A DNA stretch of 64,000 nucleotides from Syntrophaceae bacterium (lineage in GTDB: Bacteria > Desulfobacterota > Syntrophia > Syntrophales > UBA5619): the NCBI GenBank assembly GCA_003141195.1, contig PLLC01000024.1:26238-90237 (forward strand), in the 5' to 3' direction. Both the position numbers and the translations under genes were made by a program. Every line of letters begins with the position of its first letter. The first letter of the stretch is position 1. Of this stretch, positions 7,422 through 64,000 are shown piece after piece. Below the pieces are notes generated by a model. It ran no database searches, was not told the origin of the DNA, and saw only the letters and a program-made list of their open reading frames with translations.

Positions 7422-7428
7422 GGTCCCT

Positions 7429-8544
7429 CTAAAATCCGATCCTCGGCAACTCGTAGACCGATTTCCAGCCCTCGCTCATGGGCTCTCTCAGGAACGGTTC
7501 CATATCCTTGGCGGTTCGCAGCGTCGTCTCTTCGACCGGGGGCACTTTCCCGGCAGGGAAGGCTTCCAGGATCTGATCGTTCACCAGGGTCAGATACTGC
7601 AGGATCGCGACGATCGGTCTTTTGGCCTTGCGTGCGGTGGCCAGGCTTGGTTTCCCCACGACCCCCTGCGGCGTGGCGGCCCGCTCGATCGGGGATTGGC
7701 CCTCGCCTTCGGACCAGCGGTGGGGACGGCGGAAGGGATCGACCGACTTGTCAAAATGGCCGTCCGGCAAATAGCTCCTCCCCTCCGCATCCTGAACCAC
7801 GCTCATGTCCACCATCCCGGGCGGGAAGAGCAGCAGACCCACGGATGTTTCTGCCTCGTCGGCATGGATGAAATGCGAATCGAGACTCAGGTCGTCGTCG
7901 GTCGGATAGAAGAATTCACGCACCGCCCGGTGCCAATCCAACACCCGGAAAATACCGGGCAGATGATAACGCTTCATGAATTCCTGCAACGCCGCTTCCA
8001 GCATCCACAACTGACCGTGGTTGTTGATGATGATCTGCTTGCGGAAACCGTCGTTCCACAGTCCGAGCATGACATAGATCAACGTCTCCCGGACCACCTC
8101 TTCCGGCATGATCACCGTCCCGGCCATTCCCATATGATGATAGGGATGACCGCCGTAATTGAGCGGCGGCAACGCCAGGTTGATCGGCTTTCCCTGCTTT
8201 GCGGTATAGCGCCGCACGCCTTCGGCAATCTGGGTCACCATGAACGTATCCAGTCCGCTGACCGTATGAATCCCATGGTTCTCGGTGCATCCCACCGGAA
8301 TCAGGACGATATCGTTTTTCCGTCTGTTCCGGATCAGTTCGTTTCGGACCGTCGTCTGGATATAGGTTCCCGCTTTGCCCAGCTCCGGCGCCGCGGGGAT
8401 GCCGTAATCCGCGAGAATCCGGTCGATCTCCGCCTCCGGCGCATCCCAAAGTCTCTTCTTCAGATGCCCCACGGTATTGTCTTCGAAGATGATGGCCGGG
8501 TTCTTCGTCGTCAGCCACACCTTGTCCCTGGCTTTTTCCGTCAT
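7429..8544 (-). CDS. creatininase/formamide-hydrolase family protein (IolN-like hydrolase candidate)
   Basis: 371 aa with AAGGAGG RBS. DIVLIPVGCTENHGIH matches the creatininase-family metal-binding motif (PvGs.EqHG.HLP). Confidence 0.7.
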   Translation of the reverse strand: MTEKARDKVWLTTKNPAIIFEDNTVGHLKKRLWDAPEAEIDRILADYGIPAAPELGKAGTYIQTTVRNELIRNRRKNDIVLIPVGCTENHGIHTVSGLDTFMVTQIAEGVRRYTAKQGKPINLALPPLNYGGHPYHHMGMAGTVIMPEEVVRETLIYVMLGLWNDGFRKQIIINNHGQLWMLEAALQEFMKRYHLPGIFRVLDWHRAVREFFYPTDDDLSLDSHFIHADEAETSVGLLLFPPGMVDMSVVQDAEGRSYLPDGHFDKSVDPFRRPHRWSEGEGQSPIERAATPQGVVGKPSLATARKAKRPIVAILQYLTLVNDQILEAFPAGKVPPVEETTLRTAKDMEPFLREPMSEGWKSVYELPRIGF

Positions 8545-14852: not shown

Positions 14853-15854
14853 TCAACACCCGCAGGAGTGTCGTATCTGCAGTTTTGTCGACAAGATGAT
14901 CCGAGATTCCAGTGCCCGTCCCCCTTCTATAATCTGGATGAGGTTTCCCACCGCCAGGTCCCCGATAGCGTGCATCGGTTGCTGAACGGTTGTAAGTGAA
15001 GGCTGAAGATATTCCGCGAAGAAATTATCGTCGAAACCCGTGATGGCAATGTCTTCCGGCACCCTCATGCCGATATCCTGGCAATACCTCATAACTCCGA
15101 GAGCCATGTGATCATTCGCCGCAAACACGACATCGGCCCTCTCGGTTTCAAGAAAGGTCCGCATCGCTTCGTATCCTGATTGACGAGAAAAATCGCCTCG
15201 AACGACAACGACATTCGCCGGGTCGATTCCTTGTTCACTCAATCCAATCTTGAATCCGTAAATCCGATCCTGGGAATCTAAACTTTCTTCGGGTCCCGTA
15301 ATGAAGAGGATTCTTTGAAAACCGTGCATCGCATAATGTTTGGCCATGAGTCGCGCGCCGCCGATGTTGTCGATGAGTATTGACGGGTGATCGTCGCTGA
15401 ACGGAGGCTTCCCGATGATAATATACGGGATCTTTCTTTTCTTGAGGCGGTTCAGAAATTCCAAGTCGAAAGAGGACGATCCCGCAAAGCGAAGAAGGAA
15501 GGCATCGACTCTCCGGCCTTCAATAAGATCGATGAGCGCTCTCTTCGTATTTCGCGTTTTGATAATGAGATTGTATCCCTTCTCTTCCGCCGCGGCATCC
15601 GCCCCCGCAATCAAAGCAGTATAATACTCCCTCACGACGTCCGGCAGAAGAATCGCGATCGTTCTTGAGTTGCCGCCGGAGAGAGCCCTTGCCATGAGGT
15701 TCGGCGTGTACCCGAGTTCCTGTACCGCCTTTTCGACTTTTTCGGCCGTGGAGGGCTTCACGATACCTTCTCGGTTGATGACCCGAGAGACCGTCGCCCG
15801 TGAGAATCCGCATTTTTCCGCGACAACATCTATCGTTATCTTTTGCATATTCAT
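14853..15854 (-). CDS. LacI-family transcriptional regulator
   Basis: 333 aa. N-terminal HTH TIDVVAEKCGFSRATVSRVIN followed by a periplasmic-binding-protein-like sugar-binding domain. Confidence 0.9.
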   Translation of the reverse strand: MNMQKITIDVVAEKCGFSRATVSRVINREGIVKPSTAEKVEKAVQELGYTPNLMARALSGGNSRTIAILLPDVVREYYTALIAGADAAAEEKGYNLIIKTRNTKRALIDLIEGRRVDAFLLRFAGSSSFDLEFLNRLKKRKIPYIIIGKPPFSDDHPSILIDNIGGARLMAKHYAMHGFQRILFITGPEESLDSQDRIYGFKIGLSEQGIDPANVVVVRGDFSRQSGYEAMRTFLETERADVVFAANDHMALGVMRYCQDIGMRVPEDIAITGFDDNFFAEYLQPSLTTVQQPMHAIGDLAVGNLIQIIEGGRALESRIILSTKLQIRHSCGC

Positions 15855-15867
15855 CCATGATTCAATT

Positions 15868-15881
15868 TGTAAACGCTTACA
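15868..15881. promoter_or_regulatory. LacI/CcpA-type palindromic operator TGTAAACGCTTACA
   Basis: Fits TGWAANCGNTNWCA. Lies 14-27 nt upstream of the LacI-family gene start (15854) on the minus-strand side. I saw no other copy in the window. Confidence 0.6.
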
Positions 15882-16058
15882 TTATGAATCATCCAATTCC
15901 CGTAGTCAAGCTTTTTTTTGGTATTCTAAGCTCCGAGTGAAACCCCTGAAGAAGCTTGAACGTTTTCAAAGCGGATTTCTAACGACCGTAGTATGAGCGC
16001 CCCCTCTCTCGAATCGGGGGGAGGAGAAGGGATCGGCGGAATGTTCCATATCTCAATC

Positions 16059-44399: not shown

Positions 44400-44426
44400 A
44401 AAAGAGAGGTCTTGTCCTCTCTTTTT
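44400..44426 (+). terminator. intrinsic terminator/attenuator hairpin (10-bp stem plus T-tract) 30 nt upstream of kamA
   Basis: AAAAGAGAGG (44400-44409), loop tcttgt, CCTCTCTTTT (44416-44425), then T. The kamA RBS AGGAGG follows at 44443-44448. Confidence 0.65.
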
Positions 44427-44456
44427 GAGCATTCAGAAGACAGGAGGCATAAACAG

Positions 44457-45761
44457 ATGGAAAGTGAAGCACTTTTTGCTGAGGAGGCTGAACCTCCAGG
44501 TAGTAGGACCGGCAACGGTCTGCAACCCTACGATGGACATGTTGGCACGTCCATGAACGTTCTCTACACCCCCGCCGCGGTTCCGGCCAGGCCGGCGCCA
44601 ATGCTGCCCGCTTTCAGCGACAGCCGGGCGAGGGCCTTCCGGAAGCGTTTTTTCCCGAACACCACCCTCAAGGAATGGAACGACTGGCACTGGCAGCTTC
44701 GCAACCGCATCCGCGACGCGGAGACATTGGGGAGGATGATCCGCCTGTCGGAGGATGAGCTCCACGCCATGATCGGCGCGGCGGGCTCCCTCCCGCTCGC
44801 GATCACCCCTTACTACATGAGCCTGATCGATCCGTGGAACTCGCGTCAGGCCCTGCGCCGGACGGTCGTGCCCACCGTGCATGAGCATTTCCGCAGCAGC
44901 GGCGAGGCGGACGACCCGCTCCACGAGGATGAGGACAGCCCGGTTCCCGGGATCGTCCACCGCTATCCGGACCGCGTTTTGTTTCTGGTGACGGGGATTT
45001 GCTCGACCTACTGCCGATACTGCACCCGGTCGCGGATGGTCGGGCACCACGGCAATCAATGCCTCAACACTGAACAGTGGGAAAAGGGAATCGCGTACAT
45101 CGCAGCGCACCCGGAGGTGCGGGACGTCCTTCTCTCCGGCGGCGATCCGCTGACCATGGCCGACGAACAATTGGAGTGGCTGCTCGCGCATCTGCGTCGG
45201 ATCCCCCACGTGGAGCTGGTCCGGATCGGCACGAAGGCGCCGGTCGTTCTCCCACAGCGGATCACACCTGCCCTGGTCAGGATGCTCCGGCGCTATCATC
45301 CCCTCTGGATCAGCATCCACACGGCCCATCCGGACGAATTGACCCCGGATGTCGCCCGGGCGTGCACGCGCCTCGCCGACGCGGGAATCCCGCTCGGGAG
45401 CCAGACGGTCCTGCTTTCCGGAATCAACGACAACGTGGAGACGATGAAGCGCCTCGTCCACGGCCTGCTGAAGATCCGGGTCAAGCCCTACTACCTCTAC
45501 CAGTGCGACCCGATCCCCGGGTCTTCCCATTTCCGGACCCCGGTCTCGAAGGGGCTGGAGGTAATCCGGGGCCTGCGGGGATTCACCACCGGCTATGCGG
45601 TACCGACCTACGTCATCGACGCCCCCGGCGGCGGCGGGAAGATCCCGCTCCTTCCGGAATACGTCGAGGGACGCGAGGAGGGCGACCTGCTCCTGCGCAA
45701 CTACGAGGGGAAGGTCTTCCGCTATCCGGACTGTCCATCGACGGAAGGCGTCATCCACTGA
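44457..45761 (+). CDS. kamA: lysine 2,3-aminomutase (KamA/AblA-type radical SAM, PLP-dependent)
   Basis: ATG 44457 with AGGAGG 8 nt upstream (track start 44412 lies inside the terminator). CSTYCRYCTR radical SAM motif. Strong collinearity with clostridial LAM (EDSPVPGIVHRYPDRVLFL..., RVKPYYLYQCD, YVIDAPGGGGK). Confidence 0.85.
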   Translation: MESEALFAEEAEPPGSRTGNGLQPYDGHVGTSMNVLYTPAAVPARPAPMLPAFSDSRARAFRKRFFPNTTLKEWNDWHWQLRNRIRDAETLGRMIRLSEDELHAMIGAAGSLPLAITPYYMSLIDPWNSRQALRRTVVPTVHEHFRSSGEADDPLHEDEDSPVPGIVHRYPDRVLFLVTGICSTYCRYCTRSRMVGHHGNQCLNTEQWEKGIAYIAAHPEVRDVLLSGGDPLTMADEQLEWLLAHLRRIPHVELVRIGTKAPVVLPQRITPALVRMLRRYHPLWISIHTAHPDELTPDVARACTRLADAGIPLGSQTVLLSGINDNVETMKRLVHGLLKIRVKPYYLYQCDPIPGSSHFRTPVSKGLEVIRGLRGFTTGYAVPTYVIDAPGGGGKIPLLPEYVEGREEGDLLLRNYEGKVFRYPDCPSTEGVIH

Positions 45762-45818
45762 AATCCCGCGCCCCCGTTCCCCTTGCCGGGAGCGGAGGGC
45801 GCGGATTCCGGGTTATCG

Positions 45819-45840
45819 TTCCCACGTTGGAGCGTGGGAA
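45819..45840. repeat. REP-like 8-bp hairpin TTCCCACG-ttggag-CGTGGGAA
   Basis: In the 91-nt spacer between kamA and the first ATP-grasp gene. Same TTCC..C/G..GGAA architecture as the hairpins at 6496-6558. Confidence 0.75.
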
Positions 45841-45852
45841 TAAGGAATCAAT

Positions 45853-46836
45853 GTGAAGATCGGCATCACATACGACCTCCGGGATGATTATATCGCCGAA
45901 AGCTACACGGAGGAAGAGACTGCGGAGTTCGACCACCCGCGGACGATCGCTGCGATCGAGGAGGCCCTGCAATCGCTAGGTTACGAGACGGATCGGATCG
46001 GCCATATCCGGGCGCTGGCCCGGCGGCTCGTCGCGGGCGAGCGGTGGGACCTCGTCTTCAACATCGCCGAGGGGCTCCGGGGTTTCGGCCGCGAGGCACA
46101 GGTCCCGGCCCTCCTGGACGCCTGGGAAATCCCCTACACCTTTTCCGATCCGCTGGTGCTTTCGCTCACCCTGCACAAGGGGATGACCAAACGGGTGATC
46201 CGCGACCTCGGAATCCCGACGCCGGATTTCGCCGTCGTCGAGACGCCGGAGGAGATTGCAGCCGTGGCGCTCCCCTTTCCGCTCTTCGCCAAGCCGGTTG
46301 CGGAGGGAACGGGGAAGGGGGTCACCGCGGCCTCGAAGATCGAGGACCGGACGGAACTCGCGCGCATCTGCCGGGAATTGTTAGCAACTTTTTTTCAGCC
46401 CGTCCTGATCGAGACCTTTCTCCCGGGCAGGGAATTCACCGTCGGGATCATCGGGACCGGCACGGAGGCGTTCGTCCCCGGGGTGATGGAGGTTCATCTC
46501 ACGGAAAAGGCGGAGAAAGAGGTCTATTCCTACGCGAACAAGGAAGACTGGCACGGGCGGATCGAGTATCGTCTTGCCGCGGACGCAATGGCCCTGGCGG
46601 CGGAGAAAACGGCGCTGGCGGCCTGGCGCGGTCTCGGTTGTCGCGACGGGGGGAGGATCGACCTGCGCGCCGACGCAAACGGGGTGCCGAATTTCATCGA
46701 GGTGAACCCCCTGGCGGGGCTCCGACCCGAACACTCGGATCTGCCGATCCTCTGCGAGCTCGCCGGCATGCCCTACCGGGAGCTGATCGCCGGGATCATG
46801 CGCTCCGCCCTGAAACACATCGGAAACGGATCATGA
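45853..46836 (+). CDS. D-alanine--D-alanine ligase-like ATP-grasp enzyme (1)
   Basis: 327 aa, GTG start with AAGGAA RBS. ATP-grasp features FPLFAKPVAEGTGKGV, PGREFTVGIIG, RIDLR....VPNFIEVNPLAGL. Confidence 0.8.
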   Translation: MKIGITYDLRDDYIAESYTEEETAEFDHPRTIAAIEEALQSLGYETDRIGHIRALARRLVAGERWDLVFNIAEGLRGFGREAQVPALLDAWEIPYTFSDPLVLSLTLHKGMTKRVIRDLGIPTPDFAVVETPEEIAAVALPFPLFAKPVAEGTGKGVTAASKIEDRTELARICRELLATFFQPVLIETFLPGREFTVGIIGTGTEAFVPGVMEVHLTEKAEKEVYSYANKEDWHGRIEYRLAADAMALAAEKTALAAWRGLGCRDGGRIDLRADANGVPNFIEVNPLAGLRPEHSDLPILCELAGMPYRELIAGIMRSALKHIGNGS

Positions 46837-46846
46837 AAATATACGA

Positions 46847-46962
46847 CTTCGGAAAAGCTCCATATGCGGCGTTGTGCTTCCTCCTTCGTCGTTGCGGCGT
46901 ACATCAAAGTACGCCGCACTCCTCAGGGGTCGTGCGCCTTGCCTCTGGAGCTTTTTGCGAAG
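46847..46962. repeat. nested inverted-repeat element (outer ~16-bp stem, inner perfect 9-bp hairpin) between the two ATP-grasp genes
   Basis: Outer arms CTTCGGAAAAGCTCCA (46847-46862) and TGGAGCTTTTTGCGAAG (46946-46962), with a 1-nt bulge. Inner GCGGCGTAC (46894-46902) and GTACGCCGC (46909-46917). Confidence 0.75.
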
Positions 46963-47005
46963 CCGTCCCGGATGCAAAGCCTTACCGGTTTATGACGGGT
47001 TCATC

Positions 47006-48019
47006 ATGAAAATTGCCGTCATCCACGGAGAGGTGGCCGCAGGGGCAGGCCGGGACGAACGGGATGTCCTCACGCAGGTCGATTTCGTCTCCCGGGGACT
47101 TGTCGCCCTGGGCCATGAGCCCGTTGTCGTTCCTGCCTCCCTGAACCTCGAAGCGGTCGCGCAGACGCTTACGGATCTGCAGCCCGAGATGGTCTTCAAT
47201 CTCGTGGAGACGCTCGCCGGAAAGGGGAGTCTGATCCACATCGTTCCTTCCCTTCTCGACGCTCTGAAGATCCCTTACACCGGCGCGGGGACGGAGGCGA
47301 TGCTCCTCACGTCGAACAAACTCCTCGCGAAGCGTTGGCTCTCCGCCGCCGGTCTCCCGACGCCGGCGTGGTTCACGACCGCGGAAACGCATGAGGAATT
47401 GCGCGTGGAAGGGGCGTGGCTTGTCAAGTCGGCCTGGGAGCATGCCTCCATCGGCCTCGACGAGGATTCTGTCCTCTTCGGGGCGGACCGGAAGCGGCTC
47501 CTCGCGGAGATGGACGTCCGTAGGAACTCACTGGGCGGGGCCTGTCTGGCCGAGGCCTACATCGACGGCCGGGAATTGAACCTCTCGCTCCTCACGGGCG
47601 AGGGCGGGCCGGAGGTGCTCCCCCCAGCAGAGATTCGCTTCGATGCCTACCCGCCGGGGAAGGTCCGCGTCGTCGGCTACCGCTCGAAATGGGAGGAGGG
47701 GACGTTCGAATTCGCGAACACCCCCCGGATCTTCGAGTTTCCGGCGCAAGATGCCCCTCTCATCGCGAAACTGAAAGACCTTGCCCTCCGGTGCTGGAAT
47801 CTCTTCGATCTGCGGGGATACGCCCGGGTCGATTTCCGCGTGGACAGAGCGGGACGGCCCTGGATCCTCGAGGTGAACACGAACCCCTGTCTCTCGCCGG
47901 ACGCGGGCTTCTCCGCGGCGACCCTTCGCGCGGGCCTGACGTTCCCGGACGTCCTTTGCCGCATCATCAACAAGAGGGAACAGCTCCCGATGATCACCGT
48001 TCATCCTGTGGAGAAATAA
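47006..48019 (+). CDS. D-alanine--D-alanine ligase-like ATP-grasp enzyme (2)
   Basis: True start MKIAVIHGEV at ATG 47006 (track ORF from 46874 runs through the repeat element). ATP-grasp motifs WLVKSAWEHASIG, DGRELNLSLL, RVDFR...GRPWILEVNTNPCLS. Confidence 0.8.
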   Translation: MKIAVIHGEVAAGAGRDERDVLTQVDFVSRGLVALGHEPVVVPASLNLEAVAQTLTDLQPEMVFNLVETLAGKGSLIHIVPSLLDALKIPYTGAGTEAMLLTSNKLLAKRWLSAAGLPTPAWFTTAETHEELRVEGAWLVKSAWEHASIGLDEDSVLFGADRKRLLAEMDVRRNSLGGACLAEAYIDGRELNLSLLTGEGGPEVLPPAEIRFDAYPPGKVRVVGYRSKWEEGTFEFANTPRIFEFPAQDAPLIAKLKDLALRCWNLFDLRGYARVDFRVDRAGRPWILEVNTNPCLSPDAGFSAATLRAGLTFPDVLCRIINKREQLPMITVHPVEK

Positions 48020-55921: not shown

Positions 55922-56397
55922 GATATCTACCTCCTTATTTATGGTTGCTGCCTTGAACATCTTGAACATCACTTTCCCCTCTTAGGTTGAGGGGTTCTCA
56001 TAGAAATTCAGATATTTCCGAACCTTTTTTGCTGTCCGGTTTTCACCAATGCGACATAACCCCAAAAAGAAAAAAATGTCAAGCGAAACCGGTCCGGACG
56101 ATGTGATGTCCGTCGTCTTCCTCGGCGCTTCAAAATTCGCGGCGCGGCTCTTCGACAATTATCTCCAAATAATCTTAATTTTGACATGATATGCGGAAAA
56201 GAAAAAAATGGTTGCGTTATGTTTGTCAAGAGATTTATAGATATTCCGCCGTATTTAAAATGGGATAGAGGGATCCGGCATTCCATGAGTGCTAAGGATA
56301 CGATTGCACAGTTAAGGTCTGGAGTCCTGAATATGCTCCCGAGTGGTGGAGATATACGGAAACTATAAAATAACTTGTTAGACGATGATAAAACAAT

Positions 56398-57186
56398 ATG
56401 GGAGAAGACATGAATAAATGCAATAAATGCGGCAAAGATGTCGATTACTCTTTTAGATATTGTCCATCGTGTGGCGGTCAGCTTTACGTTTCGCTGGACG
56501 CATCGAATGCAAAGCCAGAGATGTTCATAGATTTATTCAACTCGTTATATAATCTTTTGGCAGATAAAAATAATGATAGACGGTCTAAATACTTACCTAT
56601 TCTTAGCGAAAACATCATCGCAAGAAGATGTAAGCTTGAATACGAAGATGATTATCGAGACATGATACAAAACCTAGGTATGAAATTTGTCCCGCCCGAT
56701 GCCACCACGTATATGTATTATTTATCTCTCACAAACACGCTTGCGGGATATACTTATCGTTCTATAGAGGAGTTAATTGTAAAAAGAAAAAGTGAGATGT
56801 TATCGGAAACAGAAAAGCATCAATTAATGTCTTCATTATTCAAAGAGGCTGAGCACGATTTAAAAAATTCCTGTTATAAAGCCCTGGATCCAGTTAATTT
56901 TGTAGACAATAGAGTCCTGTTTTGTTTGTCAGTGAGATGGAAGAATGGCCAATTGAAGTATCTGCTTGCCGACGATATATATCAGCGTGAATGGTTCTTC
57001 AATATTTTGTCGCAAAACATCGCAAAGAGCATGAAATATCATGAGAAAATATTTAAGATTCTCATACCGTGTGCGGATGTGACGGCAATCGTCAATAGGA
57101 AGCGGGAAGCGATAGAGCAGAGTGCAGAACAGGACCTCTTATTCGGCTATATTGTAAAACTGTGCGAGTCCCTGAGCCCCTATTGA
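56398..57186 (+). CDS. hypothetical protein with N-terminal zinc ribbon (cassette 1, AT-rich)
   Basis: CNKCGK-x11-CPSCGG motif. ATG 56398, or 56410 (GGGAGAAG upstream). Region is about one-third G+C (20/60 in 56401-56460). Confidence 0.6.
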   Translation: MGEDMNKCNKCGKDVDYSFRYCPSCGGQLYVSLDASNAKPEMFIDLFNSLYNLLADKNNDRRSKYLPILSENIIARRCKLEYEDDYRDMIQNLGMKFVPPDATTYMYYLSLTNTLAGYTYRSIEELIVKRKSEMLSETEKHQLMSSLFKEAEHDLKNSCYKALDPVNFVDNRVLFCLSVRWKNGQLKYLLADDIYQREWFFNILSQNIAKSMKYHEKIFKILIPCADVTAIVNRKREAIEQSAEQDLLFGYIVKLCESLSPY

Positions 57187-57217
57187 AACCAAGAAAAGAC
57201 AATAAATTGAAAGGAAT

Positions 57218-57304
57218 GACTAACCAGACAATCAACCCGACCGAGAATTCCATCCGTGCAAACAGCCACACCCCGTGGCCCGGCGGGTTATCTCTACGTT
57301 AGAG
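57218..57304 (+). repeat. attC-like site 1 (87 bp) GACTAAC...GTTAGAG
   Basis: Arms 57220-57243 and 57281-57302 pair as CTAAC, AGA, A, AACCCG and CCG with bulges. The next ORF starts 13 nt after the GTTAGAG core. Confidence 0.55.
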
Positions 57305-57317
57305 GAAAAGGTACGAC

Positions 57318-58133
57318 GTGCAAGAGTCAGAATATCGAAGCTTATTGAAGATCCTCATTGACGTGGCCGACGAGAACAAGGGAACAGCGGCTGGTGAGGA
57401 CGATCGAGTCCTGGACGCTGAGGGCTTGGCCCTTAAGTTCGTTTTTCATGCCGCGTCGGCCTTGTATCTGTACCGGAGCACGTCTCTCGCAGAGCTCGGC
57501 GCGAGTTTTTTCGACCCGGGATCGGTGAACGTCGTGTGTCGCGCTGCGCTAGAGACCTTCCTTGTTTTCCATTACCTGTTCGCTGAGCCGACGACCGACG
57601 ATGATCAGAACTGTCGCTACATGGCGTGGGTGTTAGCGAGGTATCTTGAGAGGCAACAATTCCCGGTCTGGTCAGCCGAAGGTAAAGCGGTTCTGGAACG
57701 CGAGGCGCAGCTCATCGCCCCCTTGACCGACAAGCTGAAGGGTAACGCTGTCTTCGCCGCCCTCTCGGCACGGCATCAGAAGATGCTACTGAAGGGGGAG
57801 TGGAGACTTCAGTACTGGACGGAAATCGGCCGATCCGCGGGCCTTCACGACATCCACGCGAAGGCGTTTTATGCGTACCTCTGCGGCTACGCTCATGCTG
57901 GAAACTTGAGCATCCTCCAGATACGACAAGCGAATACAGCGGCCTTACAGCGGTCCCTGTGCGCAAGCTCGATGACGCTTGTCTCGATTGCGATGGCGAA
58001 CATGGTAAAGGCGTACTGCGCGTTCTTCCCAAAGTCAATGGAACGCCTGAATCAGGAACCGGCCAGCGTCAGCCTTGTCGAAGTCTGGATCGGAGTCGGC
58101 CGCTCGGCACCCGAAGACATCCTCAACGAATGA
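57318..58133 (+). CDS. hypothetical all-helical protein (cassette 2)
   Basis: 271 aa, GTG start with GAGGAAAAGG upstream. No family recognised. Confidence 0.6.
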   Translation: MQESEYRSLLKILIDVADENKGTAAGEDDRVLDAEGLALKFVFHAASALYLYRSTSLAELGASFFDPGSVNVVCRAALETFLVFHYLFAEPTTDDDQNCRYMAWVLARYLERQQFPVWSAEGKAVLEREAQLIAPLTDKLKGNAVFAALSARHQKMLLKGEWRLQYWTEIGRSAGLHDIHAKAFYAYLCGYAHAGNLSILQIRQANTAALQRSLCASSMTLVSIAMANMVKAYCAFFPKSMERLNQEPASVSLVEVWIGVGRSAPEDILNE

Positions 58134-58140
58134 CAGCGGC

Positions 58141-58199
58141 GGCTAACAAATCAATCCAGCGGATGCGGTAAACCGCCCCGCTGATTTCAGGAGTTAGGA
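58141..58199 (+). repeat. attC-like site 2 (59 bp) GGCTAAC...GTTAGGA
   Basis: Starts 8 nt after the stop codon. CTAAC/GTTAG and CAGCGG/CCGCTG pairings with an unpaired middle and a small central hairpin GCGG-taaa-CCGC. Confidence 0.55.
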
Positions 58200-58218
58200 C
58201 CCGAAAGTCCTGAAGGGT

Positions 58219-58959
58219 GTGTTGCCTGTGAACCGTTTTGCCGCATACTCTATGATGGCTATGGCTATCCTCATCGGCGGGGGGTCGCTCCTTCTTTTCG
58301 GAGTATTTCTGGTCATCGGGCCCATCACCATAGTCCGTTTTTGTGCCACGGAACACCAGGCACTCCTGTGGAACGGATTGCTGTCCGTCCTATTCTTCAT
58401 TCAGCATAGCGGAATGATACGGCAGTCGTTTCGTACCTGGCTCTCTTCCGTTATACCCAGCCATTACCACCCGGCAACCTACGCCATCGCATCCGGCATA
58501 GCACTGACAGCCGCGGTGCTCCTTTGGCAACCGTCCCAAACGGTTCTCTATCAGGCTGAGGGCCTGCTTCGCTTGCTGACACGCGCTGTCTCCGTATTTG
58601 CCATTGTGGGCTTCTCGTGGGGGGTGCGGGCCCTCGGAAACTTTGACACCTTTGGTCTAAATCCCATCAGGGCTTATCTGCGCGGCAAGCAACTCCGAGC
58701 ACCAAATGTCATCGTCCGCGGTCCATATCTCTGGGTCCGCCATCCCCTCTATTTTTTCATGCTCGTTCTCATCTGGTCATTACCCGACGTAAGTTTGGAC
58801 CGCTTGCTTTTCAATGTGCTTTGGACCCTCTGGGTTGTTCTCGGCACGTACCTTGAGGAAAAAGATCTTGTCGCTGAGTTTGGTGAAAAGTACCGTCACT
58901 ACCAAAAGACCGTCCCGATGCTTTTCCCGTGGCGGTTTCCCCGAGGCTCCAAGCTGTGA
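58219..58959 (+). CDS. ICMT/PEMT-like membrane methyltransferase family protein (cassette 3)
   Basis: 246 aa, multiple TM helices. C-terminal RGPYLWVRHPLYFF...LEEKDLVAEFGEKYRHYQKTVPMLFP matches the isoprenylcysteine carboxyl methyltransferase-like signature. Alternative start ATG 58252. Confidence 0.65.
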   Translation: MLPVNRFAAYSMMAMAILIGGGSLLLFGVFLVIGPITIVRFCATEHQALLWNGLLSVLFFIQHSGMIRQSFRTWLSSVIPSHYHPATYAIASGIALTAAVLLWQPSQTVLYQAEGLLRLLTRAVSVFAIVGFSWGVRALGNFDTFGLNPIRAYLRGKQLRAPNVIVRGPYLWVRHPLYFFMLVLIWSLPDVSLDRLLFNVLWTLWVVLGTYLEEKDLVAEFGEKYRHYQKTVPMLFPWRFPRGSKL

Positions 58960-59013
58960 AATGCATGGTGGTCGCCTCCGGGGTGTTCACGCGCCTGACA
59001 AGGCGCTCAAGAG

Positions 59014-59071
59014 GGGCAACCACGGGGCAAGTTCACCGGTTTTGTCCGAAAGACCGTGGCCGTGGTTGCTC
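59014..59071 (+). repeat. attC-like site 3 (58 bp) GGGCAAC...GTTGCTC
   Basis: Perfect 10-bp arms GCAACCACGG (59016-59025) and CCGTGGTTGC (59060-59069). The cores deviate more from consensus than at the other sites. Confidence 0.4.
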
Positions 59072-59105
59072 ACGGGTTATCGGCACAGTATGAGCAAAGG
59101 AGAAA

Positions 59106-59618
59106 ATGAAATACGTGACTGACAGCATGAGGCCGGAAGACTGGGAACAAGTCCGTTCGATCTATCTCGAAGGCATTAGCACGGGCAATTCCACATTCGA
59201 GGCCGATGCTCCCGATTGGGGCAAATGGGATTCCGCTCACCTATCTGAGCATAGGTTGGTCATCAGGGCAGGTAATAGCGTTCTGGCATGGGCCGCACTC
59301 AGCCCCGTGTCCGGTCGCTGTGTCTACTCAGGGGTGGCGGAACTCAGTCTGTATGTAGCAGCCGGGCATAGAGGCAAAGGCATAGGGTCGGCCCTTCTTG
59401 GGGCCTTGATAGACTCATCGGAAAAGGCGGGGATATGGACGCTGCAAGGCGGTATCTTCCCCGAGAACGCAGCGAGCCGCGGTATGGTTAGAAAACATGG
59501 ATTCAGGGAAATCGGAAGACGTGAAAAGATAGGCAAGATGACTCACGGCAACCTTGCCGGAACCTGGCGAGATGTTATCTTGGTGGAACGACGAAGCGCA
59601 GTCACGGGCATAGACTGA
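59106..59618 (+). CDS. GNAT acetyltransferase, phosphinothricin/methionine-sulfoximine N-acetyltransferase-like (cassette 4)
   Basis: 170 aa with AAAGGAG RBS. YLEGI.TGN.TFE...P.W..W and AELSLYV...HRGKGIG pattern of PAT-type GNATs. Confidence 0.75.
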   Translation: MKYVTDSMRPEDWEQVRSIYLEGISTGNSTFEADAPDWGKWDSAHLSEHRLVIRAGNSVLAWAALSPVSGRCVYSGVAELSLYVAAGHRGKGIGSALLGALIDSSEKAGIWTLQGGIFPENAASRGMVRKHGFREIGRREKIGKMTHGNLAGTWRDVILVERRSAVTGID

Positions 59619-59623
59619 AGATC

Positions 59624-59686
59624 TCATAACCATCGGCTGCATCTGATCTCCCGGAAAGCGGGCTCCAGGTGAGCCGTATGTTGGCC
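59624..59686 (+). repeat. attC-like site 4 (63 bp) TCATAAC...GTTGGCC
   Basis: AAC(C)AT-CGGCT pairs with AGCCG(T)AT-GTT with single-base bulges on both arms. Central hairpin CCCG-gaaa-CGGG. Confidence 0.5.
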
Positions 59687-59706
59687 GAATAGAGACAGGA
59701 GTGACT

Positions 59707-60204
59707 ATGGAGTTGGTGGAAAACAGTCCGCTCGATACAGGTAAGATCGCCTCCCTCATATCGACCAGGGATGACATGTTCCTCGTGTGGCCTATCGCTA
59801 AATGGCCATTCGACCACCGACAGTGGGCGGAGGCGCTTGATCCTGGAAAGGGAAACGTTTCTTTCATCATCCGCGAAGGAGGCAAACCAGTAGGACATGC
59901 CGCGCTTCTAAACAAGGGGGTGCCGGACACCTGTATGGTCTCATTCCTGTATCTGCTCCCCGAGTATAGGTCCCAAGGCTTGGGGCGTCGTATGGTTGCT
60001 GCATTGGAAGACTACGCCATACACACGTTTGGCGCGAAGAGGTTGCGCCTCGTCGTGCGCGACTACAATTCCCGAGCCCTCAAATGCTATCTGCATTGTG
60101 GATTCAAGGAAACCGGACGGGATGGCACTCTAATAACCATGGAGAAGGATTTGCAGGAGGGAATTGCAGGAGGCCAACCAGCGGGTGCAGGCGATGCTTT
60201 ATAG
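59707..60204 (+). CDS. GNAT-family N-acetyltransferase (cassette 5)
   Basis: ATG 59707 with AGGAG 6 nt upstream (track GTG 59701). Acetyl-CoA motif LPEYRSQGLGRRMV. Confidence 0.8.
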   Translation: MELVENSPLDTGKIASLISTRDDMFLVWPIAKWPFDHRQWAEALDPGKGNVSFIIREGGKPVGHAALLNKGVPDTCMVSFLYLLPEYRSQGLGRRMVAALEDYAIHTFGAKRLRLVVRDYNSRALKCYLHCGFKETGRDGTLITMEKDLQEGIAGGQPAGAGDAL

Positions 60205-60228
60205 TGCGCCTGACCTGCGTCGTTAGAT
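60172..60228 (+). repeat. attC-like site 5 (57 bp) GGCCAAC...GTTAGAT, overlapping the 3' end of the GNAT gene
   Basis: Consensus R' core GTTAGAT at 60222-60228. Internal hairpin CAGGCG (60188-60193)/CGCCTG (60207-60212). Confidence 0.5.
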
Positions 60229-60263
60229 GAACTTGATTAGCCATTTAAAACGAAGGAGGCGTT

Positions 60264-60500
60264 ATGAAAATTTTTATTGAATATTGTGTTGCTTGAAACT
60301 TTCTTCCTCAAGCTTCCCGGGTGGAAGAAGAATTGAAGACAAATTATCCTGATTCAAATATTAAATTGATCGAAGGCGGAGGCGGTATTTTCGATGTAAA
60401 GTGTAACGGCAAGTTGATTTACTCTAAACAGAATATTGAAGGACAGCGATTTCCCAATGAGGGAGAAATCACCAGGTTGATCCAACAAGAGATGGGCTGA
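60264..60500 (+). CDS. SelW/Rdx-family selenoprotein (78 aa) with in-frame UGA-Sec at codon 11 (cassette 6)
   Basis: GAAGGAGG RBS 4 nt upstream of ATG 60264. Translation MKIFIEYCVA-U-NFLPQASRVEEELKTNYPDSNIKLIEGGGGIFDVKCNGKLIYSKQNIEGQRFPNEGEITRLIQQEMG*. CxxU redox motif and G..G.F.V...G.L..SK....RFP pattern of the Rdx family. Hairpin 4 nt after the UGA. Missed by the ORF track because of the TGA at 60294-60296. Confidence 0.7.
60301..60329 (+). promoter_or_regulatory. candidate bacterial SECIS hairpin
   Basis: TTCTTCC (60301-60307) pairs with GGAAGAA (60323-60329). The 15-nt loop contains GGG. Begins 4 nt downstream of the in-frame UGA. Confidence 0.5.
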
Positions 60501-60598
60501 CTTTTAACGGAAATAGGCAAAAGGGTCGCCTTTAACATTTGAATTTTGGTTGAAACAAATGGGGGTAATTATAGTAAACTCTATAATGACAATGAGTT

Positions 60599-60661
60599 GC
60601 CTAACTATGCCATGCATCGAATCGGCCATAAAGCGGCCTCTCGCTGAGCTTTGTGTTAGCC
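60599..60661 (+). repeat. attC-like site 6 (63 bp) GCCTAAC...GTTAGCC
   Basis: Consensus R'' core GCCTAAC. Internal pairing is weaker (GGCC/GGCC and CGA segments). The next ORF starts 22 nt after the core. Confidence 0.4.
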
Positions 60662-60683
60662 GTGTAGGTCGGAGAGCAGAGGA

Positions 60684-61334
60684 ATGAGGGGGCAGTCCGA
60701 GAAGCCGACAACCATCATCGCAGTTCGCCACGGTGAGACCGAATGGAACCGTGTCGGTCGCCAACAAGGTCATCTCGACAGTCCGCTCACACCGCTCGGC
60801 AAGCAGCAAGCTCTGTCGATGGCCGACGCACTATCCAGCAGGTCTGTGCAGTTGCTCTACTCCAGCGACCTCGGCAGAGCTCAGGAAACCGCCACGATTA
60901 TTGCGGCGCGGCTGAACCTGCAGGTTCGCACGGATGCGCGCCTGCGTGAACGAAATCTGGGGATACTGGAAGGCCAGACAATGTCTCAGTTTCGCGAGAA
61001 GCATCCGCCGGAAGCCGCCTCGCTTGCTTCGGGGGACCCGGATTTCGCGTTGCCGTGCGGAGAGAGTGCACGCCAGAGGTTTGTGAGGAATGTCGAATGT
61101 GTGGAGGAAATCGCACGCAAGCATGCTGGCAATACGGTCTTGGTTGTGGCACATGGTGGCGTACTAAACAGCTTCTTCCACAAGGCGGTGCAACTGCCGC
61201 TGGAAACCCGACGATCTTTTTCGCTATTCAACGCGGCAGTGAATGTGTTCACGGTTGCGGATTCGGGTTGGCGTCTGGAGACGTGGGGCGATGTCTCGCA
61301 TCTTCGAACAATCCCAACGCTTGATGACGCATAG
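60684..61334 (+). CDS. histidine phosphatase (phosphoglycerate mutase-like) family protein (cassette 7 or first post-array gene)
   Basis: 216 aa. RHGETEWN catalytic motif and a distal VVAHGG motif. Confidence 0.85.
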   Translation: MRGQSEKPTTIIAVRHGETEWNRVGRQQGHLDSPLTPLGKQQALSMADALSSRSVQLLYSSDLGRAQETATIIAARLNLQVRTDARLRERNLGILEGQTMSQFREKHPPEAASLASGDPDFALPCGESARQRFVRNVECVEEIARKHAGNTVLVVAHGGVLNSFFHKAVQLPLETRRSFSLFNAAVNVFTVADSGWRLETWGDVSHLRTIPTLDDA

Positions 61335-61417
61335 TCGGCAGAACGTTCACTTGTGCGGAACAGGGCTAACATGCGGGTGGAGCACGACAAAACGGGGGCA
61401 AAGTCGGTCAAAACCGT

Positions 61418-61460
61418 TTGACACCCCCCGGGGCATCCCTTATACTGCGGATCACGTGAT
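61418..61460 (+). promoter_or_regulatory. sigma70-like promoter TTGACA-N17-TATACT followed by perfect 10-bp palindrome ATCACGTGAT
   Basis: -35 at 61418-61423, -10 at 61441-61446, palindrome at 61451-61460 around the expected transcription start. NUDIX ATG at 61499. Confidence 0.5.
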
Positions 61461-61498
61461 GGGTCCCATCCGGGGGGTGGTCAGGAAATGAGCAACGA

Positions 61499-61906
61499 AT
61501 GCATATCCACGTGACCTGCGCGATCATCGAGCGGGACGGTCTCGTCCTGGCCGCCCGGCGGAGCCGATCCATGCGCATGCCCCTCAAATGGGAATTCCCC
61601 GGTGGAAAGATCGAGCCGGGGGAGAGCCCGGAGGCGTGCCTCCACCGGGAGTTGATGGAGGAGATGGAGCTCCGCGTTGCCGTGAAGCGGGAGATGCCGC
61701 CCTCGACGCACGAATACCCGGCCTTCACGGTCACCCTGCATCCCTTCGTCTGCGAGATCCTCTCCGGGGAGATGACCCTGAACGAGCACCATGCCATCGC
61801 CTGGCTCAAACCGGAGGAATTGCCGGCCCTCGACTGGGTTGAAGCGGACCGGACGGTCGTCGCGACGTACCGGCGGAGAATCCGCGGGACGGACATTGCG
61901 GAGTGA
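61499..61906 (+). CDS. NUDIX hydrolase (MutT-like)
   Basis: 135 aa. Nudix box GGKIEPGESPEACLHRELMEEMEL. Confidence 0.9.
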   Translation: MHIHVTCAIIERDGLVLAARRSRSMRMPLKWEFPGGKIEPGESPEACLHRELMEEMELRVAVKREMPPSTHEYPAFTVTLHPFVCEILSGEMTLNEHHAIAWLKPEELPALDWVEADRTVVATYRRRIRGTDIAE

Positions 61907-61931
61907 GACCTTTGGAAATCATGATCCCTCC

Positions 61932-61974
61932 GCGCGCTGGATATTTTTCGACCCGAAAAATCTCCAATGCGCGC
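61932..61974. other. long imperfect hairpin after the NUDIX gene
   Basis: GCGCGC-TGGA-T-A-TTTTT-C pairs with G-AAAAA-T-C-TCCA-(AT)-GCGCGC around a GACCC loop. No U-tract follows. Confidence 0.6.
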
Positions 61975-62111
61975 TTCCGGAATTAAGATTTCCAAGTTGC
62001 GCAAAAGTAGCGGAATGATTTTGAATCTCTCCAGATCGGATTCGCCGAAGCCTGCCGCGGGGAGGTTCATTTACGGAGTGAAGCGGAATTTTCAGAAAGG
62101 GGAAAAGCACC

Positions 62112-62987
62112 ATGATGGATATCAGTGATCGGAATCCGAACGAGGAGAGAAGTCTCTCCAGGCGAATGTTTCTGAAGATTGGCGGGTGGTTGATCATGGC
62201 GGCGGGTATTTTGAGAATACCGGGAATCGCCCTTGCCCAGGAAAAGTCGGAAGTGATTTCCGAGAATGTTCGGTTTCCGGGTAAAGGGGGAATGGTGGGC
62301 GGGTATCTTTCCCGACCTGCCGGGAAAGGACCCTTCCCGGGGGTTATCGTGATCCATGAAAACAGGGGTGTCACGGATTATATTCGGGACGTGACCCAAA
62401 ATCTTGCGAAAGAGGGGTATGTCGGCCTTTCGGTGAACCTTGTTTCCCGAAGCCTCGGACCGGATTATCCCGGCGGTTCGGATGAAGCCATGAAGGCCCT
62501 CGGCCAATTATCGGATGCCGATGCGATGGCGGATCTGGACGCCGGCATGGAGTACCTTCAAAAACAGCCGGTCGTATTCACCAACTCCATCGGTTGCATG
62601 GGGTTTTGCATGGGGGGAAGATTCTCCCTCCTCTTCGCCGAGCACAGAAAAGACTTGAAGGCGGCGGTGGTCTTTTATGGCCGTACGATCAACAAAATAA
62701 CCCCGCTGCAACCCCATTCACCTATGGATCTGGTGCCGGAACTGGCGGCCCCGCTGCTCGGAAATTACGGGGCTTCGGACGCGGGCATCCCGGTCGACGA
62801 TGTCAGAAAGCTCGAAGAGGCGCTGAAGAAGAGCAACAAGACCTTTGATATCAAAATATATCCGGATGCAAAACACGCGTTTCACCAGGAGGGCCCGAAT
62901 TACCATGCGGAAGCGGCAAAGGACGCCTGGAAACGGTCCGTAAACTGGCTGGCAAAATACCTGAAGCCGCAACCCCCGAAAGGATAG
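62112..62987 (+). CDS. dienelactone hydrolase family protein with twin-arginine (Tat) signal
   Basis: 291 aa. SRRMFLKIGG Tat motif. GVIVIHENRGV and GCMGFCMGG nucleophile region typical of DLH. Confidence 0.85.
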   Translation: MMDISDRNPNEERSLSRRMFLKIGGWLIMAAGILRIPGIALAQEKSEVISENVRFPGKGGMVGGYLSRPAGKGPFPGVIVIHENRGVTDYIRDVTQNLAKEGYVGLSVNLVSRSLGPDYPGGSDEAMKALGQLSDADAMADLDAGMEYLQKQPVVFTNSIGCMGFCMGGRFSLLFAEHRKDLKAAVVFYGRTINKITPLQPHSPMDLVPELAAPLLGNYGASDAGIPVDDVRKLEEALKKSNKTFDIKIYPDAKHAFHQEGPNYHAEAAKDAWKRSVNWLAKYLKPQPPKG

Positions 62988-62996
62988 ATTCATCCG

Positions 62997-64000
62997 TGGA
63001 GGACGACCTGAGCCTGTTGATCAAACCCGTCTCCGCGGACTGCAACATGCGTTGCCGGTATTGCTTTTACCGGCGAACGACGGATCCCTATCGTTCCGAA
63101 GAGCGTCACATCATGGATGATATGACGCTCAAAACGATGATCTCTCAGTATATGAAATCGGCCGGAAGGTGCGCCTCGTTTGGCTGGCAGGGCGGGGAAC
63201 CGCTTCTGGCCGGCATCGGTTTTTTTAAGAGGGTTGTCGCCTATCAGCAAGCCTACGGCCTTTCGGGGCAACTGGTCGGCAACAACCTGCAGACCAACGG
63301 TCTTTTGATCGATGAGGCGTGGGCAAAATTCTTCCGGCAGTATAACTTCTTCATCGGTGTGAGCCTGGACGGTCCGGAGGAAGTTCACAATCGCTACCGT
63401 CACTCCGCAAACGGAAATGACGGTTTTCAGCGGACCCTGAAAGGAATCCGGACCCTCAGGGATCACCGGGTGGAATTCAGCATTCTTTCCGTGGTTAACG
63501 ATGTGACGGCGAAGAAACCGGCGGAACTCTATGATTTCTTCATCCGAAACGGGCTCGACCGGCTGCAGTTCATCCCCTGCCTTGAGATCAATGGCGAAAC
63601 CGGGAAGGTACAGGACTACTCGGTCACGGTGCAGGATTACCGGGATTTTCTCTGCACCCTGTTCGATCTCTGGTACAACCACGGCCGACCGGTGGCCTCG
63701 ATAAGGCTTTTTGAAAATATCCTGGCCATCTATCTGGGCCGGGACCCGGAGATCTGCGCCTTCAAGGACCGGTGCGGCAGCTATCGGGTCGTTGAATACA
63801 ATGGCGATGTCTATCCCTGTGATTTTTTTGTGGAAGATCAATGGATGTTGGGGAATTTGCTGGATACGTCGATCCACGATCTGCTGAAGAAGCGGAAGAG
63901 CCGGGAATTCAACGGCCGAAAAATGGAGGGATCGCCCGTCTGTAAACCCTGTGAATGGAATTTCATCTGTCATTTCGGCTGTCAGCATTACCGCTTGTCT
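62997..64000 (+). CDS. radical SAM/SPASM-domain maturase (anaerobic sulfatase-maturating enzyme-like), 3'-truncated by window edge
   Basis: Open frame from GTG 62997 to the window end with no stop: VEDDLSLLIKPVSADCNMRCRYCFY... (CxxxCxxC), GGEPLL, later C-rich SPASM region CAFKDRCGS...YPCDFF...CKPCEWNFICHFGC. The track only lists the antisense ORF 62990-63988. Confidence 0.75.

Follow-up and report, generated by a model that had tools for sequence, protein, structure and literature searches.

The stretch of DNA analysed here (the window) comprises 64,000 nucleotides (nt) of contig PLLC01000024.1 of a Syntrophaceae bacterium (assembly GCA_003141195.1) and carries on its forward strand a small selW-like gene (60264..60500), which is predicted from its translation and from Pfam and NCBIfam profiles to encode a selenoprotein of 78 codons, including selenocysteine (Sec) at codon 11. 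Coordinates without a label refer to the window, L with three digits denotes a fetched homologue locus (a genome or metagenome contig), and P with four digits denotes a homologue protein. A Shine-Dalgarno sequence, GAAGGAGG, can be read directly at 60252..60259 (+), 4 nt 5' of the ATG, and AAGGAGGCGTTATG is kept at this position in nearly all close homologues. The frame runs through the codons TGT GTT GCT TGA (60285..60296, +; Cys codon TGT at 60285-60287, in-frame TGA at 60294-60296), which the homologue alignment supports as Cys8-Val-Ala-Sec11, and ends at a terminal TGA at 60498-60500. Its read-through translation is MKIFIEYCVA*NFLPQASRVEEELKTNYPDSNIKLIEGGGGIFDVKCNGKLIYSKQNIEGQRFPNEGEITRLIQQEMG, corresponding to a 78-residue product, MKIFIEYCVA-U-NFLPQ...GEITRLIQQEMG. 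The original prediction for this locus had proposed the same ribosome-binding site, start codon, in-frame and terminal TGA codons and 78-codon frame, and all of them were recovered. The Sec codon reads as a stop, so gene finders miss selW, and the mechanical list of open reading frames (ORFs) offers at this locus only a 59-amino-acid (aa) restart at GTG 60321. The guanine-cytosine (GC) fraction of selW is 0.38 as against 0.57 for the window; its leader measures 41 nt, and leader, gene and the Sec insertion sequence (SECIS) described below form a unit of ~290 bp. The gene belongs to a co-oriented array of nine small, unrelated genes (56376..62987, +), assigned with Pfam, which starts at GTTAGAC (56376-56382) after a conserved leader and encodes, in order, a Zn-ribbon protein, DUF5677, an NnrU-like protein, two GNAT proteins, SelW, a His-phosphatase, a NUDIX protein and a dienelactone hydrolase (DLH), with GC fractions ranging from 0.38 to 0.65. 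Immediately 5' of these genes, the head of the array is occupied by an ABC-transporter operon.

A protein search for relatives of the product returned 219, and DNA was examined for 79 usable loci from species-representative genomes and 80 metagenome loci, which were found by peptide patterns that leave out codon 11. The codon aligned with the UGA at 60294..60296 (+) is TGA in 79 of 79 genome loci and 80 of 80 metagenome loci, and none of the 159 carries another stop or a sense codon at the CxxU position. These loci span protein identities from 95% down to about 40% and several phyla, the labels of the host metagenome-assembled genomes (MAGs) including Syntrophales, Syntrophorhabdaceae, Desulfobacterales, Cloacimonadota, Planctomycetota, Gammaproteobacteria, Acidobacteriota and others. 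The residues preceding the UGA (M-x-I-x-I-E-Y-C) are conserved equally to those following it, giving the pattern MxIxIEYC..U.NxLP. A conserved in-frame TGA combined with protein conservation on both sides is, on sequence grounds, what classically marks a selenoprotein gene. It also agrees with an earlier report that Cys homologues of SelW-like proteins are few or lacking in Sec-using organisms (PMC1794560). All of the 'full-length' relatives in the databases carry W at position 11, which implies that the TGA was translated with genetic code 4, on short contigs. The remaining database relatives are 55-65-aa restarts, several of which were named 'selT/selW/selH-like putative selenoprotein' by JGI. 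Elsewhere in the window TGA serves as an ordinary stop, for example in the Zn-ribbon gene and at the end of selW itself. The W-for-U proteins are P0001-P0022 and P0048 (ENA, JGI gene calls), apparently called with code 4; such Trp-for-Sec gene calls constitute a systematic annotation artefact that could be mined for selenoprotein genes.

Profile searches, in which U was written as C, placed the product in the SelW/Rdx family, as had been proposed from its CxxU motif and the pattern of the remaining sequence. Pfam PF10262 (Rdx) matched the read-through translation with 67.1 bits (cut-off 22.6) over profile positions 2-73 of 74, and the part following the UGA scored 41.4 bits alone, so that Rdx similarity extends to both sides of the codon. 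TIGR02174 (CXXU_selWTH) gave 57.4 bits (cut-off 34.2), and the NCBIfam equivalog NF041051, 'SelT/SelW/SelH family (seleno)protein', gave 97.6 bits (cut-off 88). A profile built from the clade finds the solved Rdx proteins 2ljk, 3dex, 2fa8, 2oka, 2obk, 2ojl and 2p0g and aligns the UGA column to the second Cys of the CxxC motif in the solved Cys-form homologues; Cys8-Val-Ala-Sec11 aligns with CEPC of MIEN1 and CTQC of SAV_2001. The fold was inferred from the AlphaFold (AF2) model of homologue P0002, which is 87% identical to the window protein. This model (predicted local distance difference test score 91.9) has the order beta(2-8)-alpha(14-27)-beta-beta-beta-alpha(68-77), with residues 8-11 at the end of beta1 and in the beta1-alpha1 loop. 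It matches 2oka, 3dex, 2fa8 and 2obk with template-modelling (TM) scores of 0.80-0.85 and also matches 2p0g and mouse SelW (2npb); the 23 best PDB matches of the model all belong to the Rdx family or are SelW-related, with TM scores of at most 0.85. Over the solved Cys-form Rdx proteins (2fa8 Atu0228, 2oka, 2obk, 2ojl, 2p0g and 3dex) together with mouse SelW, TM scores range from 0.73 to 0.85, with a root-mean-square deviation of about 2 Å over 76-80 residues and the CxxC or CxxU motif at the equal place. However, sequence identity to these structures is only 22-27%, and the solved bacterial Rdx structures are Cys forms of ~100 residues, whereas the window protein is a Sec form of 78 residues. 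Given the curated profile scores and the SelW-like fold of the model, membership of the window protein in the SelW/Rdx family is established, with its fold being a modelled one.

Covariation analysis and RNAalifold revealed a SECIS-like hairpin within the ORF (60312..60328, +), with a stem formed by 60313-60317 and 60323-60327 that starts 15 nt past the UGA and a 5-nt apical loop, CGGGU (60318-60322). RNAalifold predicts this helix independently in the close clade and in all 80 sequences. In the ungapped 80-sequence alignment its covariation reaches 0.34, whereas slid controls do not exceed 0.088; 83 cells are doubly changed, and the observed covariation was attained in 0 of 500 shuffles. All six pairs are formed in 65 of the 80 metagenome loci and five of six in another 14. 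Close relatives carry GCUUCC-CGGGU-GGAAGC, and distant ones carry GCCGCC-AGUUU-GGCGGC, GCUGAC-CGUGU-GUCAGC or GCGGUC-AGUCU-GGCUGC, with the G at loop position 2 and the U at loop position 5 each at least 90% conserved. The arms fall in Ala-Ser and Val-Glu-Ala codons, and the encoded amino acids change (Ala-Ala, Ala-Asp and others) with the pairing kept. The closing position, G60312/A60328, is mismatched in the window lineage, leaving a stem of 5 bp here as against 6 bp in relatives. The hairpin resembles the bacterial SECIS of the Escherichia coli fdhF type in lying within the ORF past the UGA and in having a 5-nt apical loop and a compensated stem. It differs in its simple stem, in its 15-nt spacing from the UGA and in matching no Rfam model; the fdhF SECIS has an 11-nt spacing and a bulged U. 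All in all, 60264-60500 is very probably a selenoprotein gene equipped with a SECIS.

The original prediction had also placed a SECIS 3' of the UGA, and a hairpin does exist there, but the conserved one is 60312-60317/60323-60328 and not the 7-bp hairpin that had been proposed (60301..60329, +; arms 60301-60307/60323-60329). The latter is present in the window yet no stronger than chance, since the fold of 60285-60345 has z = -0.26 and 65 of 200 shuffles fold equally well. Its covariation among the 80 homologues, 0.129, lies below two slid controls (0.189 at slide -2), and it was rejected as the SECIS because it is not conserved and does no better than these controls. It is lineage-specific and has the 3' arm GGAAG in common with the SECIS. 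Codon 22 is GAA (Glu) in the window as against GCN (Ala) in 18 of 19 close homologues, and this A22E change both breaks the G60312/A60328 pair of the SECIS and extends the complementarity to an upstream UUCUUCC. The competing hairpin thereby created may possibly tune Sec insertion.

Four sites resembling attC, the recombination site of integron cassettes, were found in the first part of the array and around selW (57218..57304, 58141..58199, 60172..60228 and 60599..60661, all +). All four fold as single-stranded DNA into a CTAAC/GTTAG terminal stem, an unpaired spacer, a bulged inner stem and a variable loop, and three of them have the exact layout R''(7)-5 nt-L'' (with one or two extra bases)...L'-6 nt-R'(7). 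The site at 58141..58199 is of textbook form, GGCTAAC-AAATC-AATC(C)AGCGG...CCGCTGATT-TCAGGA-GTTAGGA (fold z = -2.24), and the one following the Zn-ribbon gene, 57218..57304 (GACTAAC ... GTTAGAG, two extra L'' bases, fold z = -2.47), shows 0 mismatches in a geometry scan. The site assigned to the second GNAT cassette, 60172..60228, consists of R'' GGCCAAC, a 5-nt spacer, L'' GGT(G)CAGGCG with one extra base, a loop, L' CGCCTGACC, a 6-nt spacer and R' GTTAGAT, and its bottom-strand fold pairs the R boxes and a bulged L stem. The site assigned to selW, 60599..60661 (R'' GCCTAAC ... R' GTTAGCC), has an R-box stem, an unpaired spacer, a bulged L stem and a terminal hairpin, and is conserved in L081, L085 and L089. 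The fold z-scores of this selW-flanking pair are only -0.6 to -0.8, and 57218..57304, 58141..58199 and the sites in L090, L092 and L094 are far more canonical. If the boundaries are drawn from the R' boxes, the selW cassette would extend over 433 bp (60223..60655, +), comprising TTAGAT..., the leader, the gene, a 98-nt spacer and its own attC up to the G of R'; this whole stretch is conserved in the sister genomes L081, L085 and L089. An alternative candidate for the selW attC, 60502-60555 (TTTTAAC...GTTGAAA), was rejected, having no attC-like fold; its conserved cTTTTAAC just belongs to the sequence directly 3' of the gene.

Simple R-box and geometry scans yield intragenic false positives and were unconvincing as a means of finding attC sites, so comparative junctions were relied on instead. 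The window is syntenic with the Syntrophales MAG L003 and with L085, a metagenome contig of 23.6 kb, and has in common with both the ABC-transporter operon (91-92% identity) and the conserved leader. The three sequences diverge within 2 nt of GTT 56376-56378, where their first genes differ, and identity resumes exactly at GTTAGGA 58193, preceded by hairpin bodies that differ, so that array content varies among them at one chromosomal locus. A block of two GNAT genes (59018..60219, +) is present only in the lineage of the window and L081; it is absent from L003, L085, L099, L107 and L143, where identity resumes at GTT 60222. Nucleotide alignments of the selW unit with unrelated contigs open at 60218-60222, the GTT of R', in about a dozen instances, which places the edge of the homology at G60222/T60223, and the unit stands behind at least six different attC-like sites, all joined at GTT. 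Examples are GCCCAAC-CAGGC-AATC(C)AGCCG...CGGCTGATT-TTATC-GTTGATG upstream of selW in L090 and L093 and GGCCAAC-AATTA-GAGC(C)ACCGG...CCGGTGATC-TTTTC-GTTAGAT upstream of it in L094, while in L092 a canonical attC, whose L boxes match window 58153-58186, lies ~70 nt past the selW stop. The L-box motif of 58141-58199 recurs beside selW in L090, L093 and L092, with 0 occurrences expected by chance. The selW unit retains 88-91% nucleotide identity to copies in MAGs labelled Cloacimonadota, Syntrophorhabdaceae and Desulfobacteraceae, whose loci have GC fractions of 0.36-0.46; such identity across hosts with flanking GC of 0.36-0.57 points to recent transfer.

The original prediction regarded selW as the cargo of an integron cassette, and this claim is supported by the attC-like sites on both sides and the GTT junctions but does not extend to a complete integron. 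An IntI1 sequence validated by Pfam served as integrase probe; it detected no IntI1-like integrase in the window, nor any less than 10 kb from selW at 160 or more loci, and neither intI nor attI was found in the 56 kb upstream of the array or in the fetched flanks of any homologue. Weak integrase hits in L126 and L128-L130 were rejected as a 60-aa recombinase remnant among polysaccharide genes. With no integrase found, the array resembles a CALIN, as IntegronFinder names integrase-less attC arrays, and selW is probably an attC-bounded cassette (60223-60655) in such a chromosomal, CALIN-like array. The array resembles integron cassettes and CALIN in its short, co-oriented and mostly promoterless ORFs, in its imperfect palindromes with R'', L'', L' and R' boxes and extra L'' bases, in its G/TT junctions, in a typical cargo (GNAT, NUDIX, hydrolases) and in a content that varies between close relatives. 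It differs from them in that the window has no intI, attI or demonstrable Pc, that some spacers hold no canonical attC, and that selW is paired with different attC sites in different lineages.

Taken as a whole, the locus is best read as a functional-looking SelW-like selenoprotein gene that travels as an integron-type cassette, a reading to which we assign a probability of roughly 0.8. Ribosomes would start at ATG 60264 behind the strong Shine-Dalgarno sequence, and the UGA at codon 11 would be recoded as Sec, with the hairpin 60313-60317/60323-60327 presented to SelB carrying Sec-tRNA(Sec), by analogy with E. coli fdhF. The product is modelled as a thioredoxin-like beta-alpha-beta-beta-beta-alpha protein in which Cys8-x-x-Sec11, at the end of strand 1, would form a thiol/selenol redox centre. 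The ~290-bp unit of leader, gene and SECIS would move as an integron-type cassette and, with the SECIS lying inside the ORF, such a cassette would be self-contained and useful only in hosts with selABCD, as the original prediction had correctly noted in principle when it pointed to the need for a Sec-decoding host. A scan of the window found no promoter-like site directly 5' of selW, so transcription probably comes from upstream. A sigma-70-like match in the conserved leader 5' of the first cassette (56181-56209, +; TTGACA-17-AAAAAT, 10/12) could act as a Pc-like array promoter; a second one (61418-61446, +; TTGACA-17-TATACT, 11/12) lies 5' of the NUDIX gene. It is an evenly balanced question whether the unit is a genuine cassette that integrases now shuffle among Sec-decoding Syntrophales, Syntrophorhabdaceae, Desulfobacterales and Cloacimonadota.

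Several observations weigh against this reading, some of them touching the cassette and others the decoding of the gene. Those touching the cassette would fit a real SelW-like gene that is no integron cassette and lies in a variable chromosomal islet, where the repeats would be terminators, repetitive extragenic palindromic (REP)-like elements or chance palindromes and the changes would stem from homologous or illegitimate recombination. Apart from the missing integrase and attI, our own attC geometry scan gave 11 hits window-wide compared with 6.4 ± 2.9 expected, which is not significant, and the looser R-box scan also hits inside genes. Rfam, searched at gathering and permissive thresholds, returned neither an attC nor a SECIS family match. 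The spacers 58972-59050 and 60500-60557 have no attC-like fold, and the left junction of the GNAT block falls inside an attC hairpin and not at an R' box. In unrelated contexts, homology ends just past the stop (60503-60512), so that conservation does not span both the gene and its attC and selW has different attC partners among lineages; moreover, many selW homologues are solitary, outside recognisable arrays. However, the breakpoints lie 0-2 nt from the palindrome-closing GTT at three window junctions and at least six upstream sites, several sites have the exact R''-5 nt-L''(bulge)...L'-5/6 nt-R' layout, and the attC-like sites carry no terminator T-run. We consider the islet explanation unlikely.

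Slightly less likely again is that the gene is intact and yet decoded poorly or not at all in this host, either for want of Sec machinery or through a weakening of the SECIS by A22E, so that translation would mostly stop after 10 residues. The closing pair of the SECIS is broken in one of 20 close sequences, that of the window lineage only; the SECIS core is worth -5.1 kcal/mol in the window compared with -7.2 in L001; and the competing hairpin, at -8.3 kcal/mol, is more stable than this core. The window contains no tRNA of any kind, no SelD-like sequence and neither selA nor selB, nor does it hold another convincing selenoprotein gene with an in-frame TGA. Nevertheless, the GGAAGA variant recurs in four metagenome contigs with the ORF otherwise intact, and likewise in the sister-strain metagenome contig L081, which is 99.8% identical to the window. 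Moreover, a ribosome paused on the UGA should, to judge from the known ribosome footprint, hold 60301-60307 inside the mRNA channel, making the competing pairing unavailable and leaving the SECIS free, so that the competing hairpin would matter little during decoding. Synteny with L003 marks the host as a Syntrophales bacterium, and its relatives are rich in selenoproteins: Syntrophus aciditrophicus is listed with 19, including SelD, and the Deltaproteobacteria are the richest selenoprotein users (PMC1794560). By analogy with these relatives, the host is likely Sec-competent.

Far less probable is a UGA that acts as a true stop, leaving either a pseudogene or a 59-aa product from GTG 60321. 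Public gene calls do list products of 55-65 aa, but conservation across phyla covers the first ten codons, the CxxU motif and the Shine-Dalgarno sequence, and codon 11 is always TGA, while GTG 60321 has no Shine-Dalgarno sequence 5' of it and the 59-aa form would be without strand 1 and the redox motif. That an alternative genetic code reads the UGA as a standard amino acid (Trp, Gly or Cys) is least credible of all, since the W shown by some database entries comes from code-4 calls on short contigs, TGA ends ordinary genes of the window, a conserved covarying hairpin follows this one UGA, and the hosts (Syntrophales, Desulfobacterales, Planctomycetota and others) to our knowledge use the standard bacterial code.

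The favoured reading, a SelW-like selenoprotein gene in an integron-type cassette, concerns a well-known protein, and the gene adds little knowledge by itself. Catalogues of selenoproteins have included bacterial SelW-like members since 2005, and these form the most abundant selenoprotein family in the Sargasso Sea survey (PMC1088965, PMC1794560, PMC2398784); both NCBI and JGI use models that carry their name. Within this family, Cys forms occur seldom or not at all in close relatives, and the family is patchily distributed (PMC1088965, PMC1794560). Compared with the known members (PF10262, TIGR02174, NF041051), the window protein has the same motif, size and fold and differs in nothing essential. 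Its clade stands apart from other SelW-like proteins in being centred on anaerobic Thermodesulfobacteriota (Syntrophales, Syntrophorhabdaceae and Desulfobacterales), in being AT-rich relative to its hosts and in its attC-like packaging. The searchable full-text literature on integrons, gene cassettes or attC together with selenoproteins or selenocysteine yielded no report of selenoprotein cargo; within that literature, the cassette packaging of this ordinary protein appears to be an unreported, modest new observation. A selenoprotein gene with a SECIS inside its ORF that moves as a cassette-sized unit between distant anaerobes would fit the patchiness with which earlier selenoproteome surveys found SelW-like genes distributed and would give it a concrete vehicle. 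It would also imply that integron-type arrays can carry cargo working only in hosts with an accessory decoding system. If integrases do shuffle the unit, it would be the first described selenoprotein cassette, and the usefulness of the cargo, and hence its retention, would depend on a separate multi-gene trait of the recipient, selABCD. As regards annotation, public data list selW here and hundreds of its relatives either as fragments of 55-65 aa or with the Sec codon rendered as Trp; strand 1 and the catalytic CxxU are regained once the UGA is read through.

Comparison of the arrays also yielded a number of minor observations. The first array gene, 56398-57186 (+), encodes 262 aa with an N-terminal zinc ribbon and has 38% GC, like selW. 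The first slot differs in the three syntenic genomes, being occupied by this Zn-ribbon gene in the window, by a 312-aa ORF in L003 and by a DUF1016/YhcG gene in L085. L085 carries two copies of the terminal 86 bp of the leader (window 56294-56379, closing with ...AACTTGTT), one at 4502-4587 and one at 6148-6233, on the two sides of DUF1016/YhcG, an arrangement that looks as if the leader end were a recombination site duplicated by cassette insertion. An attC-like site past the NnrU-like gene (window 58978-59071) is common to the window and five relatives only up to ...GCTCAAGAGGGGC (59017). The relatives continue with the 3' half GCGGCAAAAAGCCGCC...GTTAGAT (compare L003 6290-6360, L085 7150-7225 and, in L099, L107 and L143, the 140 nt upstream of the selW ATG). 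The window has instead a perfect 10-bp hairpin, GCAACCACGG...CCGTGGTTGC (59016-59069), followed by the two GNAT genes. With the 3' half of this attC replaced, the GNAT block is not a simple insertion at an R' box, and a simple cassette insertion of the two genes was rejected because the right junction fits but the left one lies inside the attC; the left site may be a hybrid or rearranged attC.

Further rearrangements touch selW itself. In L097 (1-110) the 3' end of the NnrU-like gene runs almost directly into the selW ribosome-binding site, with the attC and the GTTAGAT leader deleted. In L003 (6600-8538) the last selW codons are replaced (...LIEQNTV*) and are followed by AT-rich DNA and a hipA toxin gene (7213-8538); this region, set against the His-phosphatase, NUDIX and DLH genes of the window, marks another breakpoint, one inside the cassette. 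The ~2 Mb of fetched loci contain seven copies of a 12-nt motif, TGGCCCGACCYC, none of them farther than ~130 nt from selW: in L004 (5752-5763), L005 (6416-6427, +; 6731-6742, -), L009 (10326-10337), L100 (9961-9972, +; 10276-10287, -) and L122 (867-878). In L005 and L100 the motif forms an inverted pair bracketing selW. The window has 0 matches, even at 1 mismatch, and the motif could belong to a second attC family or another small mobile element. In L069, a Planctomycetales MAG, the selW-like gene has a selD homologue ~5 kb away (14997-16040, -; 39% identity to the SelD probe from E. coli), making this the sole fetched locus with Sec machinery visibly nearby.

Beyond the array, 62996-64000 (+) is an open frame running off the window end, of the radical-SAM/SPASM type with a CNMRCRYC motif, and matches the gene that follows DLH in L085; a 332-aa minus-strand ORF at 62990-63988, which matches nothing in Pfam, is probably spurious. 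A lysine-2,3-aminomutase-like radical-SAM gene followed by two ATP-grasp genes (D-Ala-D-Ala ligase C-terminal type) occupies 44412-48019 (+), a small biosynthetic-looking cluster that is unrelated to the selW finding.

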